Positions 2,441-62,034 of a stretch of DNA of 64,000 bases are shown here, piece after piece; position 1 is the stretch's first letter; each line of letters opens with the position of its first letter. The notes below the pieces were generated by a model that saw only the letters and a list, made by a program, of their open reading frames with translations, had not been told where the DNA came from and ran no database searches. A program made the position numbers and the translations under genes. Source of the stretch: Escherichia coli (GTDB taxonomy: Bacteria; Pseudomonadota; Gammaproteobacteria; Enterobacterales; Enterobacteriaceae); NCBI RefSeq assembly GCF_003790525.1, contig NZ_CP033635.1. One strand, written 5' to 3'.

Positions 2441-3676
2441 ATGATTACACATTTCCGTCAAGCTATAGAAGAAACGCTGCCCTGGCTTTCCTCTTTTGGC
2501 TCTGACCCAACGGGTGGAATGACCCGTTTACTTTATTCGCCGGAATGGTTGGAAACCCAGCAGCAATTTAAAAAAAGAATGGCAGCAAGCGGGCTGGAAA
2601 CACGTTTCGATGAAGTGGGGAATTTATACGGTCGCCTGAGTGGCACCGAATATCCACAGGAAGTGGTTCTGAGCGGTTCGCATATCGATACCGTGGTTAA
2701 CGGCGGTAACCTCGACGGACAATTCGGCGCACTGGCGGCGTGGCTGGCAATTGACTGGTTGAAAACGCAATACGGCGCGCCGTTACGTACGGTCGAAGTG
2801 GTGGCGATGGCAGAAGAAGAAGGCAGCCGCTTCCCGTATGTCTTCTGGGGCAGTAAAAATATCTTTGGGCTGGCGAATCCTGACGACGTGCGGAATATCT
2901 GTGATGCCAAAGGAAATAGTTTTGTCGATGCGATGAAGGCTTGCGGATTTACTCTGCCGAACGCCCCACTAACTCCGCGTCAGGATATTAAAGCCTTTGT
3001 CGAACTGCATATCGAACAGGGCTGTGTGCTGGAAAGTAATGGGCAATCAATTGGCGTGGTGAATGCAATTGTCGGGCAACGTCGCTATACGGTGACGCTG
3101 AATGGCGAATCAAACCATGCAGGCACCACGCCGATGGGTTATCGTCGTGATACGGTTTACGCTTTCAGTCGCATTTGCCATCAGTCGATCGAAAAAGCGA
3201 AAAAGATGGGCGACCCGCTGGTGCTGACCTTTGGCAAGGTGGAACCGCGCCCGAATACGGTAAATGTGGTGCCGGGGAAAACCACGTTCACCATTGATTG
3301 TCGTCATACCGACGCCGCCGTGCTGCGCAATTTCACCCAACAGTTAGAAAACGACATGCGGGCGATTTGCGATGAAATGGACATTGGTATTGATATCGAT
3401 TTATGGATGGACGAAGAACCGGTGCCGATGAATAAGGAGCTGGTCGCCACCCTGACAGAATTGTGTGAAAGCGAAAAACTGAATTACCGGGTAATGCACA
3501 GTGGTGCCGGGCACGACGCACAAATTTTCGCGCCTCGCGTGCCGACCTGCATGATTTTCATTCCCAGCATCAACGGGATCAGCCATAACCCGGCGGAACG
3601 CACCAATATTACCGACCTTGCCGAAGGGGTCAAAACGTTGGCACTCATGCTTTATCAACTTGCCTGGCAGAAATAA
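2441..3676 (+). CDS. allC: Allantoate amidohydrolase
   Basis: ORF track 2423..3676; recognised AllC; start moved to internal Met (MITHFRQAIEE...) to match the known ~411 aa protein. Confidence 0.9.
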   Translation: MITHFRQAIEETLPWLSSFGSDPTGGMTRLLYSPEWLETQQQFKKRMAASGLETRFDEVGNLYGRLSGTEYPQEVVLSGSHIDTVVNGGNLDGQFGALAAWLAIDWLKTQYGAPLRTVEVVAMAEEEGSRFPYVFWGSKNIFGLANPDDVRNICDAKGNSFVDAMKACGFTLPNAPLTPRQDIKAFVELHIEQGCVLESNGQSIGVVNAIVGQRRYTVTLNGESNHAGTTPMGYRRDTVYAFSRICHQSIEKAKKMGDPLVLTFGKVEPRPNTVNVVPGKTTFTIDCRHTDAAVLRNFTQQLENDMRAICDEMDIGIDIDLWMDEEPVPMNKELVATLTELCESEKLNYRVMHSGAGHDAQIFAPRVPTCMIFIPSINGISHNPAERTNITDLAEGVKTLALMLYQLAWQK

Positions 3677-4472: not shown

Positions 4473-4514
4473 GTCATACCACTCGCCTGATTATTTTTAG
4501 CTATGTTGGATTTT

Positions 4515-4541
4515 GCCACGGTTTATTCCGTGGCTTTTTTT
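4515..4541 (+). terminator. Rho-independent terminator downstream of allE
   Basis: GCCACGG / CCGTGGC stem followed by a T7 run. Confidence 0.5.
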
Positions 4542-4554
4542 GCGGTAAATTCAG

Positions 4555-6019: not shown

Positions 6020-6523
6020 TTACTGATAGTGTTTTATGTTCAGATAATGCCCGATGACCTTGTCATGCAGCTCCACCGATTTTGAGAACGACAGTGACTT
6101 CCGTCCCAGCCTTGCCAGATGTTGTCTCAGATTCAGGTTATGCCGCTCAATTCGCTGAGTGTAACGCTTGCTGATTACGTGCAGCTTTCCCTTCAGGCGG
6201 GATTCATACAGCGGCCAGCCATCCGTCATCCATACCACGACCTCAAAGGCCGACAGCAGGCTTAGAAGACGCTCCAGTGTGGCCAGAGTGCGTTCACCGA
6301 ATACGTGCGCAACAACCGTCTTCCGGAGCCTGTCATACGCGTAAAACAGCCAGCGCTGGCGCGATTTAGCCCCGACGTATCCCCACTGTTCGTCCATTTC
6401 CGCGCAGACGATGACGTCACTGCCCGGCTGTATGCGCGAGGTTACCGACTGCGGCCTGAGTTTTTTAAATGGCGGAAAATCGTGTTGAGGCCAACGCCCA
6501 TAATGCGGGCGGTTGCCCGGCAT
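6020..6523 (-). CDS. insB: IS1 InsB (C-terminal part of InsAB' transposase)
   Basis: ORF track, 167 aa, recognised InsB. Confidence 0.95.
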
Positions 6524-6717
6524 CCAACGCCATTCATGGCCATATCAATGATTTTCTGGTGCGTACCGGGTTGAGAAGCGGTGTAAGTGAACTGCAGTTG
6601 CCATGTTTTACGGCAGTGAGAGCAGAGATAGCGCTGATGTCCGGCGGTGCTTTTGCCGTTACGCACCACCCCGTCAGTAGCTGAACAGGAGGGACAGCTG
6701 ATAGAAACAGAAGCCAC
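6442..6717 (-). CDS. insA: IS1 InsA (transposition repressor / N-terminal part of InsAB' transposase)
   Basis: ORF track, 91 aa, [23 protein letters not shown]... recognised; A6C slippery motif lies at plus-strand 6460-6466. Confidence 0.95.
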
Positions 6718-23846: not shown

Positions 23847-23996
23847 GTAGGCCTGATAAGACGCGCCAGCGTCGCATCAGGCATCCGCGCATAGCCGCCG
23901 GATGCGGCGTGAACGCCTTATCCGGCCTACCAAACCGTGCTAATTCAATACATTGCAGGTGCCATGTAGGTCTGATAAGACGCATCAGGCATCGCA
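23847..23996. repeat. REP/BIME cluster (three REP units)
   Basis: Repeated GCCTGATAAGACGCG...CGCATCAGGC and GCCGGATGCGGCGTGAACGCCTTATCCGGCCTAC motifs. Confidence 0.85.
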
Positions 23997-27045: not shown

Positions 27046-27060
27046 CGAGTAGAGGCAAAA

Positions 27061-27423
27061 TTACTCTTCCCGGCCTTTACCCATACTTTTTTGGTCTTCA
27101 TCCGGATAGTGTTTTTTTAGATATTCCAGGACGTTTTTATTGACCTTGTGTTGGGTATACACCCACCCTTTCCAGTAATCAGGTTGGTCCAGGTAAACTT
27201 CTGGCGGAATGGTGAAATCAGAAAGCGTTAACCATTCGGCTAACAGATCGGGGTTTCGTTTCTGGATCAACTGCAACAGCATGATCAGCGACATGGCAGA
27301 GGCAGGAGCCGTACTATCGCCGCTTAAATACTTCCACACTGTCGACCGGTTCGAACGAAAAAGGATCGGTAGCAATGCCCGGTCCAGATTCATTTCATTA
27401 AAAATCTTCTCAAATTCATTCAT
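27061..27423 (-). CDS. Hypothetical protein, 120 aa, no signal peptide; function unknown
   Basis: ORF track; not recognised; divergent from the adhesin gene across an AT-rich intergenic region; not present at this position in my recollection of K-12. Confidence 0.5.
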   Translation of the reverse strand: MNEFEKIFNEMNLDRALLPILFRSNRSTVWKYLSGDSTAPASAMSLIMLLQLIQKRNPDLLAEWLTLSDFTIPPEVYLDQPDYWKGWVYTQHKVNKNVLEYLKKHYPDEDQKSMGKGREE

Positions 27424-27788
27424 TTAAATTTCCTGCCTGGCGTAAACCTCTTAAAAATTGAGATTTATCAAAGAAACGCATTTTAGCACACATCAGGAAC
27501 CGCTTCACGTTTAGTCCAGAAACAGAATTTATTTCGCTTATCAAAACAAGTCTTTACTCTTTTTTACATTGAAAGAGCACGAAATAATTTCCTTTTTTAT
27601 TTATATAAGAAACTATTTTTGTTCCTTATTGGTGGTGTTTACGCTTACACAAGACAAAAATGCGCTTTACATCACACAAATGGCGGCGTAGATTTCGATC
27701 AAATTGCAACGCAGTTTATTTCTTAAAACAATATTATTTGTTTCTTATAGAAACATTAATGCGACTTATTTTGAACAAGAGAAAATGA

Positions 27789-28805
27789 ATGAAAACTGTA
27801 AACGTAGCTTTACTGGCACTCATAATTTCAGCAATATCCAGCCCTGTTGTTTTAGCTGGTGATACCATTGAAGCGGCGGCAACAGAGCTTTCAGCCATTA
27901 ACTCTGGCATGTCGCAATCGGAGATTGAGCAGAAGATTACCCGCTTTTTAGAACGCACAGACAACAGCCCCGCTGCGTATACCTATTTGACTGAACATCA
28001 CTACATCCCTTCTGAAACACCTGATACCACTCAGACTCCCACTGTCCAGACAGATCCTGACGCAGGACAAAAAACCGTTGCCGCTACAGGTGATGTACAG
28101 ACAACCGCCCGTTATCAGAGCATGATCAACGCCCGACAGTCTGCGGTAACTGATGCCCAGCAAACGCAAATTACAGAGCAACAGGCGCAGATCGTAGCCA
28201 CACAAAAAACGCTCGCCGCGACTGGAGATACGCAAAATACCGCGCATTATCAGGAGATGATTAATGCCAGACTGGCGGCTCAAAATGAGGCTAATCAGCG
28301 CACTACCACGGAACAAGGGCAGAAAATGAATGCACTGACAACCGATGTGGCAGCACAACAGCAAAAAGAAAGGGCTCAATACGATAAACAAATGCAAAGT
28401 CTGGCGCAGAAGTCTGTCCAGGCACATGAGCAAATTGAAAGTCTGAGACAAGATTCCGCACAAACGCAGCAACAGTTAACCAACACGCAAAAACGGGTCG
28501 CAGATAACAGCCAACAAATTAACACGCTCAATAACCATTTCGATTCTCTGAAAAACGAAGTTGAGGACAATCGTAAAGAAGCCAATGCGGGAACTGCATC
28601 TGCCATTGCTATCGCCTCACAACCACAGGTGAAAACCGGTGACGTGATGATGGTGTCAGCGGGAGCGGGAACGTTCAACGGTGAATCTGCGGTGTCTGTA
28701 GGAACATCTTTTAATGCCGGAACGCATACGGTACTTAAAGCAGGTATTTCTGCGGATACACAATCTGATTTCGGTGCGGGTGTCGGCGTGGGATATTCGT
28801 TCTAA
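27789..28805 (+). CDS. Miniature trimeric autotransporter adhesin-like protein: signal peptide, Gln-rich coiled-coil stalk, YadA-type C-terminal beta-barrel anchor
   Basis: ORF track, 338 aa; N-terminal signal-like MKTVNVALLALIISAISSPVVLAG; stalk-anchor junction KEANAGTASAIAIASQPQ; anchor GDVMMVSAGAGTFNGESAVSVGTSF...VLKAGIS...GAGVGVGYSF with terminal aromatic; purine-rich RBS-like AAGAGA upstream. Confidence 0.8.
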   Translation: MKTVNVALLALIISAISSPVVLAGDTIEAAATELSAINSGMSQSEIEQKITRFLERTDNSPAAYTYLTEHHYIPSETPDTTQTPTVQTDPDAGQKTVAATGDVQTTARYQSMINARQSAVTDAQQTQITEQQAQIVATQKTLAATGDTQNTAHYQEMINARLAAQNEANQRTTTEQGQKMNALTTDVAAQQQKERAQYDKQMQSLAQKSVQAHEQIESLRQDSAQTQQQLTNTQKRVADNSQQINTLNNHFDSLKNEVEDNRKEANAGTASAIAIASQPQVKTGDVMMVSAGAGTFNGESAVSVGTSFNAGTHTVLKAGISADTQSDFGAGVGVGYSF

Positions 28806-28858
28806 TTTTAACAGCAATTTCTTATTCGCAATTTTCCGCACATTATTTAAGGTTAACA

Positions 28859-29281
28859 ATGATGAATAGCTCCATTAAATCGTTTTCCCTGCTGGCGGTT
28901 ATATTACTGGCTGGCTGTAGTTCACCCACTTCCCGCATCGCAGATTGCCAGGCGCAGGGCGTCAGCCATGACACCTGTTATCTCGCAGAACAGCAGCGTC
29001 AGACGGCTATTTTAAGTGCATCCGAGGCGCAGGCATTTAAAAATGCAGAAGCCGCACAACATGCCCAGGCGGCAAAGAAAGCCATTTATAAAGGATTTGG
29101 CATGACCTTTAGAATGAGCAGTAAGAACTTTGCTTATCTCAATGATTCATTATGTGCAATTGATGAAGACAATAAAGATGCCACTGTTTATCAGTCAGGT
29201 CTTTATAACGTCATTGTTTATCACCACACGGGAAAAGTCGCCTTAATGAAGGAAGGTCAGTTTGTGGGTTATTTAAAATGA
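28859..29281 (+). CDS. Putative lipoprotein, 140 aa
   Basis: ORF track; signal peptide with lipobox LLAGC (Cys20); immediately downstream of the adhesin gene. Confidence 0.6.
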   Translation: MMNSSIKSFSLLAVILLAGCSSPTSRIADCQAQGVSHDTCYLAEQQRQTAILSASEAQAFKNAEAAQHAQAAKKAIYKGFGMTFRMSSKNFAYLNDSLCAIDEDNKDATVYQSGLYNVIVYHHTGKVALMKEGQFVGYLK

Positions 29282-29481
29282 AGGAGCAAAGGAAAATCCC
29301 CCTGACGCATATTATGATTATCGGTGCGTTTATTTTTGCCTTCTTGCAAGTGGTGTTATTAGCCTCCCTGGTTCACGCTGTGAATGTTAACAACGAAATC
29401 CAGGAAGGCTTATTTCAGTCGGGGCGCATTATGGTAGAAAGTTTGCAGCATATTCTTTCGGTGCAAACGGGGATTAACTGA
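29278..29481 (+). CDS. Putative small single-pass membrane protein, 67 aa
   Basis: ORF track; start overlaps the lipoprotein stop (ATGA); one hydrophobic helix IMIIGAFIFAFLQVVLLASLV. Confidence 0.4.
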   Translation: MKEQRKIPLTHIMIIGAFIFAFLQVVLLASLVHAVNVNNEIQEGLFQSGRIMVESLQHILSVQTGIN

Positions 29482-35314: not shown

Positions 35315-36109
35315 ATGGATCTGTTGTACCGGGTAAAAACGCTTTGGGCCGCGCTGCGCGGTAATCATTACACCTGGCCTGCTATCGATATCTCTCTTCC
35401 CGGCAATCGCCATTTTCATCTGATCGGCAGTATTCATATGGGTAGCCACGATATGGCTCCCCTGCCCACCCGTTTGCTCAAAAAGCTCAAAAACGCCGAT
35501 GCGCTGATCGTCGAGGCGGATGTTTCCACCAGCGATACGCCTTTTGCTAATTTGCCTGCCTGCGAGGCGCTGGAAGAGCGCATTAGCGAGGAGCAACTCC
35601 AAAACCTGCAGCACATTAGCCAGGAGATGGGCATTTCTACCTCACTCTTTTCTACCCAACCGCTGTGGCAAATCGCGATGGTTCTTCAGGCGACGCAGGC
35701 ACAAAAACTGGGGCTCCGGGCAGAATATGGTATCGATTACCAGCTATTGCAGGCGGCGAAGCAACAACATAAACCCGTGATTGAACTGGAAGGGGCAGAA
35801 AACCAGATTGCCATGTTGCTCCAGCTCCCTGACAAAGGACTGGCACTGCTGGACGATACGCTGACCCACTGGCACACCAATGCACGGTTGCTGCAACAAA
35901 TGATGAGCTGGTGGCTGAATGCACCGCCGCAAAATAATGAAATAACGCTGCCCAATACGTTCAGTCAGTCGCTGTACGATGTGCTGATGCATCAGCGAAA
36001 TCTCGCCTGGCGGGATAAATTACGCGCCATGCCGCCGGGGCGATATGTGGTCGCGGTCGGTGCACTACACCTGTATGGAGAAGGGAATTTGCCGCAAATG
36101 TTGCGCTAA
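35315..36109 (+). CDS. ybaP: TraB/GumN-family protein
   Basis: ORF track, 264 aa; recognised YbaP. Confidence 0.85.
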   Translation: MDLLYRVKTLWAALRGNHYTWPAIDISLPGNRHFHLIGSIHMGSHDMAPLPTRLLKKLKNADALIVEADVSTSDTPFANLPACEALEERISEEQLQNLQHISQEMGISTSLFSTQPLWQIAMVLQATQAQKLGLRAEYGIDYQLLQAAKQQHKPVIELEGAENQIAMLLQLPDKGLALLDDTLTHWHTNARLLQQMMSWWLNAPPQNNEITLPNTFSQSLYDVLMHQRNLAWRDKLRAMPPGRYVVAVGALHLYGEGNLPQMLR

Positions 36110-36191
36110 AAAAATGGCCAATATCGCTATTGGCCCGTCAAAGAGGAATTTCATTTTTTTATTATTATGCCGTCACTTTAAGCGACGGTGT
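36108..36191 (-). ncRNA. chiX: ChiX (MicM/SroB/RybC) Hfq-dependent small RNA
   Basis: Minus-strand sequence ACACCGTCGCTTAAAGTGACGGCATAATAATAAAAAAATGAAATTCCTCTTTGACGGGCCAATAGCGATATTGGCCATTTTTTT matches ChiX as I recall it, ending in a GGCCAATAGCGATATTGGCC hairpin plus U-run; lies in the ybaP-ybaK spacer as in K-12. Confidence 0.8.
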
Positions 36192-41864: not shown

Positions 41865-41949
41865 GTAGGCCTGATAAGACGCGCCAGCGTCGCATCAGGC
41901 ATTGAGAGCAAAATGCCAGATGCGGCGTGAACGCCTTATCTGGCCTACG
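41865..41949. repeat. REP/BIME pair
   Basis: TAGGCCTGATAAGACGCGCCAGCGTCGCATCAGGC and GCCAGATGCGGCGTGAACGCCTTATCTGGCCTAC. Confidence 0.85.
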
Positions 41950-49264: not shown

Positions 49265-51196
49265 TCAAATGGGGCGGATACTTTCTTCATCCAGCTCCGC
49301 ATCGAAGAATCGACGCAGGGTCTGAATATTATTATCCGCAATAATGGACTCGCGCGCCTGCGCAAGTTTTTCTTCGTATATCGCCTGACGCCATTCCAGC
49401 GGCGTACGCACCGCGGGATTATCATCTTCAACGATAGTCAGTTCAACCGTTGAACCTTTTAACGTGCTCAACGCTTCAGCCAGTTTTTGCTGTGCGCCGC
49501 GGTTGTTCAAATGCCGCTGAGAGGAGCGCAAATGCAGACATACTGCGTTGTCGCTCTCCTCTTTCCAGGCATTTAACGCCACCTGTTCGACCAGTTTTGG
49601 TAGCGAAAGTTGACTCACCTGAGCCGCCCACGGGTCGCGCTCAATGGCTTCTGCCGCCAGCTTCGCCGCCAGTTCCGGCGTTTTTTCATGTTCCAGCGCT
49701 TTTTTCAGCGCCTTCGGCGTGGCGACCACTTCTTTTTGCTGCATCACTGGAGTGGTCGCCTTCCAGCGATACGCTTCTTTTTTGGCTGGCGCTTTTTCCA
49801 GCGCCGATGGCACCGGGCGCGCCTGAACGCGATCGGTGACCGAAGCCAGTCTTTCCAGCGCAGCGTTATTCACCGGCCGCGCGCGGGTAGCGGCTGCCGG
49901 TTCACTCTTTTTTGCTTTGGTTGCTCCCTGCACGCGCTGCAACTGCTGGCGCGCCGCCAGCACCTGGCTGGTGGTTTCCGGGAGCGGTACAGTCGGTGCC
50001 TGCTGCGGCGCTGATTGCGGTTGCGGCGGCACCTGGGTTGGCGTCATTACTGCCGTTGGCGCAACGGGCGCAAAGGACTGGCGTGGCACTTCTGGCTCAG
50101 GCAGAGGCATACGCGGATGGAACGCCAGCGCGCGCAGCAGCGTCATCTCAACGCCCATGCGGCGGTCCGGCGCATACGGTAATTCTTTGCGACCAATCAA
50201 CAGCGTTTGATAGTAAAGCTGAATATCCGTCGGCGGTATGGTACGCGCCAGTTCACGCATCCGCAGCTCGATGGCGGCCATGTCGTTGCCAAGTGCAGCA
50301 GGCGAAAGTTGTACCATCGCAATACGATGCAACAAACCGAGCATTTCCACCAGCAACGCTTCCCACTCGATACCACGGGCAGCAGCTTCATTAATTAGCG
50401 CCATTACGCGCTCGCCGTTGGCCTCGACCATCGCTTCAACCAGCGACAACGCCTGATCGTCGTCAAGCGTACCCAGCATCGCACTGACGGCCTGGGTTGA
50501 AACCTGGCCGTCACCGCTGGCAATCGCCTGGTCGGTCAGACTTAAGGCATCTCGCAAGCTGCCTTCAGCGGCGCGCGCCAGTAATTGCAACGCCCGCGGC
50601 TCGTGAGCGATATGTTCTTCGTTGAGGATGTGCTCAAGCTGATGGCGAATTTGCTCGACATCCAGCGCCTTGAGATGGAATTGCAGACAGCGCGACAAAA
50701 TCGTCACCGGCAATTTCTGCGGATCGGTCGTCGCCAGCAGAAACTTAACGTGCTCCGGCGGCTCTTCAAGGGTTTTTAACAGTGCGTTAAAGCTGTGGCG
50801 CGACAGCATATGCACTTCGTCGATGAGATAAACTTTGAAACGACCACGCGCCGGAGCGTACTGGACGTTATCCAGCAGGTCGCGAGTGTCTTCAACTTTA
50901 GTACGCGAGGCGGCGTCGATTTCAATCAGATCGACAAAGCGCCCCTGCTCGATTTCACGACAGTTATCGCACACGCCGCACGGCGTCGCGGTAATGCCGG
51001 TTTCGCAGTTTAGCCCCTTCGCCAGCAGTCGGGCGATAGAGGTTTTTCCGACGCCACGGGTACCGGAAAAAAGATAAGCATGATGAATACGCCCTAACGA
51101 CAAGCCGTTCGCCAGTGCGGTCAGCACATGTTCCTGGCCGACGACGTCAGCAAAGGTTTGTGGGCGCCATTTTCGGGCTAAGACCTGATAACTCAT
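49265..51196 (-). CDS. dnaX: DNA polymerase III tau subunit (gamma made by -1 frameshift)
   Basis: ORF track, 643 aa; recognised DnaX. Confidence 0.95.
   Translation of the reverse strand: MSYQVLARKWRPQTFADVVGQEHVLTALANGLSLGRIHHAYLFSGTRGVGKTSIARLLAKGLNCETGITATPCGVCDNCREIEQGRFVDLIEIDAASRTKVEDTRDLLDNVQYAPARGRFKVYLIDEVHMLSRHSFNALLKTLEEPPEHVKFLLATTDPQKLPVTILSRCLQFHLKALDVEQIRHQLEHILNEEHIAHEPRALQLLARAAEGSLRDALSLTDQAIASGDGQVSTQAVSAMLGTLDDDQALSLVEAMVEANGERVMALINEAAARGIEWEALLVEMLGLLHRIAMVQLSPAALGNDMAAIELRMRELARTIPPTDIQLYYQTLLIGRKELPYAPDRRMGVEMTLLRALAFHPRMPLPEPEVPRQSFAPVAPTAVMTPTQVPPQPQSAPQQAPTVPLPETTSQVLAARQQLQRVQGATKAKKSEPAAATRARPVNNAALERLASVTDRVQARPVPSALEKAPAKKEAYRWKATTPVMQQKEVVATPKALKKALEHEKTPELAAKLAAEAIERDPWAAQVSQLSLPKLVEQVALNAWKEESDNAVCLHLRSSQRHLNNRGAQQKLAEALSTLKGSTVELTIVEDDNPAVRTPLEWRQAIYEEKLAQARESIIADNNIQTLRRFFDAELDEESIRPI
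49870..49914 (-). other. dnaX programmed -1 ribosomal frameshift signal: slippery heptamer A_AAA_AAG plus downstream stem-loop
   Basis: Minus-strand GCA AAA AAG AGU GAA CCGGCAGCCGCUACCCGCGCGCGGCCGG; heptamer at plus-strand 49908-49914, GC-rich palindrome at about 49872-49900. Confidence 0.8.

Positions 51197-58881: not shown

Positions 58882-62034
<3,153 letters not shown>

Follow-up and report, generated by a model that had tools for sequence, protein, structure and literature searches.

The canonical dnaX −1 ribosomal frameshift cassette in an Escherichia coli genome and its conservation across Enterobacterales

In E. coli, the production of the tau and gamma subunits from dnaX by −1 frameshifting has been shown experimentally (PMC5009743, PMC5389563). 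Three signals take part, namely a slippery sequence, a Shine-Dalgarno (SD)-like sequence and a hairpin, and mutation of each of them reduces frameshifting (PMC5389563). In vitro, the frameshifting of the wild type was reported as 84%, versus 2% for G_AAG_AAG, 20% without the hairpin and 50% with a mutated SD (PMC5389563). About 50% of ribosomes change frame in vivo and end one codon later, and tau and gamma are made at about 1:1 (PMC5009743). The hairpin slows the EF-G-driven translocation of two tRNA-Lys, and, as the only tRNA-Lys of E. coli has a stronger pairing with AAA than with AAG, the return to pairing in the −1 frame is favoured (PMC5009743). The cassette is among the best-studied recoding signals, and knowledge of it is not extended by the present analysis; it is useful here as a positive control, being a real recoding signal that is recognisable from raw sequence.

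The dnaX gene and its frameshift cassette

The cassette lies in the minus-strand dnaX gene of a 64-kb stretch of E. coli DNA, hereafter the window. Its features, with the evidence for each given in brackets, are as follows:

51196..49265, minus: dnaX zero-frame open reading frame (ORF), encoding tau, 643 aa with a calculated mass of 71.1 kDa (ORF list, NCBIfam, Pfam)
49902..51196, minus: gamma coding region, consisting of frame-0 codons 1-430, a −1 slip, GAG (Glu) and TGA
49932..49868 (gene positions 1265-1329), minus: full DnaX ribosomal frameshifting element, Rfam RF00382 (covariance model)
49929..49924, minus: internal Shine-Dalgarno-like AGGGAG within the RF00382 match (sequence and spacing; stimulator role from PMC5389563 and PMC5009743)
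49913..49907, minus: slippery heptamer A_AAA_AAG, formed by the Lys429-Lys430 codons and the preceding A
49907..49902, minus: codons read after the −1 shift, GAG (Glu431 of gamma) and TGA, the latter at 49904..49902
49901..49872, minus: 3' stimulatory stem-loop (fold, Rfam structure line and conservation across Enterobacterales)

The identity of the host gene is given by the NCBIfam model NF005942 ('DNA polymerase III subunit gamma/tau'), which matches the full-length product with 982.5 bits (cut-off 613), and by the Pfam gamma/tau domains I-V (PF13177, PF22608, PF12169, PF12168 and PF12170), that is, the clamp-loader ATPase, the lid and gamma/tau domain III, followed by tau domains IV and V. 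In the Pfam assignments, the DnaB-binding domain IV covers residues 417-498 and the alpha-interacting domain V residues 500-640. Since the shift site (codons 429-430) falls at the start of domain IV, gamma would lack both the DnaB-binding and the alpha-binding domains. The predicted gamma has 431 aa, a calculated mass of 47.5 kDa and the C-terminus ...TKAKKE, and in MG1655 the counterpart of its coding region is the joined CDS YP_009518751.1 ('DNA polymerase III subunit gamma').

Read on the minus strand, 49940..49860 begins with ...GUG CAG GGA GCA ACC AAA GCA AAA AAG AGU GAA and continues with CCG GCA GCC GCU ACC CGC GCG CGG CCG GUG AAU AAC.... The heptamer begins with the last base of codon 428 (gene position 1284), within the zero frame GCA AAA AAG, and its phase is the one required for tandem −1 re-pairing. 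When the whole gene was checked, this was the sole X_XXY_YYZ heptamer in the correct phase; two further copies of AAAAAAG in dnaX, at 49783..49777 and 49705..49699, have the phase AAA_AAA_G and were discarded as tandem-slip sites. In the −1 frame the sequence reads ...AAA AAA GAG TGA, a single sense codon followed by a stop. The bare AAAAAAG is not rare in the window (24 observed versus 15.4 expected), and so the heptamer by itself is uninformative; a chance occurrence was ruled out only by its phase, the stop, the spacing, the hairpin and the Rfam score jointly.

Upstream, the AGGGAG is separated from the heptamer by a spacer of exactly 10 nt. Against the 3' end of 16S rRNA, which we take to be 3'-AUUCCUCC-5', it could form six pairs, one of them G-U. 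Downstream, the stem-loop consists of CCGGCAGCCGCUACCCGCGCGCGGCCGG and a closing A-U pair, with 11 bp, an internal A/G mismatch, a bulged C and the loop UACCC; it begins 5-6 nt after the heptamer, and its CCGG arm lies 6 nt 3' of the latter. In its 42-nt context the hairpin folds with −19.7 kcal/mol, and 3 of 200 dinucleotide shuffles were as stable (z = −2.63, which is only moderate and has to be kept in mind as a caveat). The canonical hairpin is retained in the minimum free energy (MFE) structure of a 150-nt context that includes upstream sequence, as it is in the local folds. In a 120-nt context containing downstream sequence only, the MFE structure prefers a longer-range alternative, where the 5' arm is partly re-paired with distal sequence; we regard this alternative as an artefact of folding the sequence globally in silico.

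The whole arrangement is recovered by the covariance model RF00382, which places the element inside dnaX, on the coding strand, with 96.8 bits over model positions 1-65 of 65 (E = 3.6e-21; gathering score 35 bits). A further hit in the gene, STnc460 at 49325..49414, scores 26 bits (gathering score 70; E = 0.087) and, being below the threshold, was treated as chance.

An initial annotation of the window, made from the letters, had described an intact cassette with this heptamer and a downstream GC-rich stem-loop on the minus strand, and both are found there, at 49913..49907 and 49901..49872. The two checks it proposed gave the expected outcome, translation of the −1 frame yielding GAG and then an immediate TGA, and folding of the 3' stem-loop yielding the stable structure described above. 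The span it assigned, 49870-49914, takes in heptamer, stop and hairpin but leaves out the AGGGAG, a third element that it did not mention. Its view that ORF-based annotation misses the signal is right for mechanical ORF lists, plain ORF calling giving only the 643-aa tau ORF and omitting the 431-aa gamma; it does not hold for RefSeq/PGAP annotation, in which a 'DnaX frameshifting element' is marked. In the RefSeq record of E. coli SMS-3-5 (NC_010498.1) that element is already annotated over exactly the same span, and in MG1655 (NC_000913.3) gamma has an annotated joined CDS in two pieces. The cassette is known and already annotated, and it is no discovery.

Identity within E. coli and conservation across Enterobacterales

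Read in reverse complement, the whole window corresponds to positions 507601-571600 of E. coli SMS-3-5 NC_010498.1, with five substitutions in 64 kb, and its dnaX is 100% identical to that of SMS-3-5. The DNA thus comes either from a strain very closely related to SMS-3-5 or from a second sequencing of SMS-3-5 itself. The five differences are at window positions 59269, 46519, 45981, 36497 and 3755; three change the protein (acrB V129I, htpG M550I and ybaK V62A) and two, in adk (L45) and allE (H23), are synonymous. In comparison with K-12 MG1655, dnaX has 36 differences in 1909 compared sites, 35 of them synonymous, and the sole non-synonymous one is at codon 578, with Thr in the window and Met in K-12. 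Zero differences from MG1655 were found in the region from gene position 1134 to 1380, which includes the cassette (1265-1329).

An 81-nt query covering the cassette has a 100% identical match in the K-12 derivative RP437. Among 5426 complete E. coli genomes, the cassette region is present once in 5424, with at least 99% identity over the aligned part in 5315 of these, and all E. coli matches listed carry the annotation 'DnaX frameshifting element'. About 109 genomes are below 99% identity; the lowest-ranked match sampled (H42) is 100% identical over query positions 1-70, and its alignment ends just beyond the hairpin. Two of the 5426 genomes have no dnaX match, and in two others the record with the match carries a plasmid label; both observations probably reflect assembly or labelling issues.

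For a wider survey, the pattern AGGGAG-N10-AAAAAAGAGTGA, with the hairpin left unconstrained, was searched in one species-representative genome per species, and at least 120 matches were obtained. Among the 120 matches listed, 75 are complete Enterobacterales dnaX cassettes, with a taxonomic range that is to be read as a lower bound. The genera include Escherichia, Citrobacter, Enterobacter, Kosakonia, Pluralibacter, Klebsiella, Buttiauxella, Pantoea, Erwinia, Mixta and Serratia. The 75 listed loci have 56 distinct downstream sequences, each with a hairpin at the same offset and predicted energies of −17 to −23 kcal/mol.

Covariation was scored in an alignment of 34 distinct sequences, using the eight pairs common to all variants. 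Across these pairs 98.9% of cells are paired; when the register is displaced by 1-3 columns, the figure is 20-57%. At the closing position 20 sequences have A-U and 13 have G-C, and in Mixta one G-C of the stem is replaced by A-U, with both sides changed. Five of the eight common pairs, and most pairs of the lower stem, are invariant and hence uninformative for structure, and the covariation evidence rests mainly on one pair. The apical helix is always paired; its register and loop size differ between the E. coli/Citrobacter type and the Enterobacter/Pantoea types.

The remaining 45 of the 120 listed matches contain no usable dnaX cassette. Most of them are a Collinsella gene start, with AGGGAG followed by the GTG start codon and CCA AAA AAG AGT GAG..., and were rejected as a recoding site because the AGGGAG there is a genuine initiation SD; the rest comprise isolated matches scattered over unrelated phyla, together with two dnaX loci truncated at contig ends. 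In the Collinsella loci (L005, L006, L015 and about 35 others), a gene start conserved in many species of the genus, where the codon after GAG is AGC, the heptamer occupies codons 2-4 in the A_AAA_AAG phase and is followed by UGA in the −1 frame, most likely by coincidence.

Some single loci deserve mention in their own right. In Candidatus Pantoea persica (L055, cassette at 3006-3033, minus), the AGGGAG, the heptamer and GAG-UGA are retained, and the usual hairpin is disrupted and reads GAGCCGGCAGCGUCGGCUAACUCC, as though the stem-loop had been partly deleted; only a different, longer-range fold is predicted, and this cassette may have a weakened frameshift stimulator. Two other records are probably cases of contamination or mislabelling, namely 'Chryseobacterium sp. 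18061' (L068), which has a dnaX cassette of the Citrobacter type, and 'Enterobacter ludwigii' EnVs2 (L084), with one of the Pantoea type, the same as in L062 and L066.

Interpretation and alternative explanations

Taken together, the dnaX site is almost certainly the canonical E. coli −1 programmed ribosomal frameshift cassette, and nothing was found in the sequence that would speak against it. By its identity with the experimentally characterised cassette of K-12, it is to be regarded as functional. From the literature and this identity we infer the slippage itself and its kinetics, as well as an efficiency near 50%, with values of up to about 80% in some assays. The reading of the initial annotation, that both tau and a shorter gamma would be produced, is supported by the MG1655-identical cassette and by the joined gamma CDS of K-12.

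On this basis, ribosomes translating dnaX would arrive at A_AAA_AAG with two tRNA-Lys on AAA and AAG, while the upstream AGGGAG would be paired to the 3' end of 16S rRNA and the GC-rich hairpin would be located at the mRNA entrance channel. Translocation would be impeded at the heptamer, and in about half of the ribosomes both tRNAs would re-pair one base back, on AAA_AAA. The slipped ribosomes would then read GAG and stop at UGA, giving gamma (431 aa), and the non-slipping ones would carry on to give tau (643 aa).

Three other readings have to be considered, the last two of them rivals of the canonical cassette. The first leaves the cassette in place and has a factor outside it shift the tau:gamma ratio relative to K-12, candidates being Thr578 of tau and a different modification status of tRNA-Lys; it is very improbable. 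There is no hint of an altered ratio in the data, and the cassette itself is identical.

The second, that gamma arises through transcriptional slippage of RNA polymerase on the A run, is less probable still and close to negligible. It draws on the homopolymeric A run of the site and on Thermus thermophilus dnaX, where gamma does arise in this way (PMC5009743). However, the run here has only 6 A, whereas productive transcriptional slippage has been described on runs of 9 A or T (PMC5009743). Moreover, transcriptional slippage leaves no role for the SD-like element and the hairpin, ribosomal stimulators that are conserved and placed at precise distances, and either the synonymous G_AAG_AAG or removal of the hairpin lowers E. 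coli frameshifting in in-vitro translation (PMC5389563).

Equally close to negligible is the third, in which heptamer, stop and hairpin are a chance assembly or a decayed relic and tau alone is made, any gamma being generated by proteolysis as in Caulobacter crescentus (PMC5009743): the bare AAAAAAG is common in the window (24 versus about 15 expected), but the RF00382 match is full-length (E = 3.6e-21), the cassette does not differ from the one validated experimentally in K-12, with no substitutions against 35 synonymous and 1 non-synonymous in the surrounding gene, and many Enterobacterales genera have kept all three elements together with the immediate stop.

Other features of the window and comparison with known systems

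A second −1 programmed frameshift is present in the window, in an IS1 family transposase (6020..6717, minus) whose slippery site is at 6466..6460. The heptamer is A_AAA_AAC, in the context UUUAAAAAACUCAGG, and in the SMS-3-5 annotation the gene is a two-piece join labelled 'programmed frameshift'. A uracil/xanthine transporter gene is split by the IS1 copy into two pseudogene fragments. In addition, Rfam matches above the gathering score were obtained at 23850..23927, 41868..41945, 36108..36191 and 4479..4545 (all minus), their identities being two naRNA4 (REP-derived nucleoid-associated RNA), the sroB (ChiX) sRNA and STnc480. A small non-core block is located between cueR and ybbJ, at about 27060..29480 of the window (record 542120-544540), and contains, according to the SMS-3-5 annotation, a YadA-family autotransporter adhesin and three hypothetical proteins.

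Regarding known systems, the dnaX genes of Thermus thermophilus and Caulobacter are alike in that tau and a shorter gamma come from one gene (PMC5009743). They differ in mechanism, which is transcriptional slippage in the former and proteolysis in the latter; in the present dnaX the A run is not long enough for transcriptional slippage to be efficient, and there are ribosomal stimulators. Closer in mechanism are the insertion sequences (IS1 insA/insB, with A_AAA_AAC, and the IS3 family), which share the A_AAA_AAN tandem-slippage heptamer and often have an upstream SD-like stimulator (PMC5009743). In those elements the shift extends the protein into a fusion transposase at low efficiency, whereas in dnaX it leads to truncation after one codon, at about 50%. 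With the K-12 dnaX element, the cassette shares the AGGGAG, the 10-nt spacer, A_AAA_AAG, the −1 frame GAG-UGA, the 6-nt spacer and the stem-loop of 28-30 nt; within the cassette the two are the same throughout, and all differences between them are in the surrounding dnaX.
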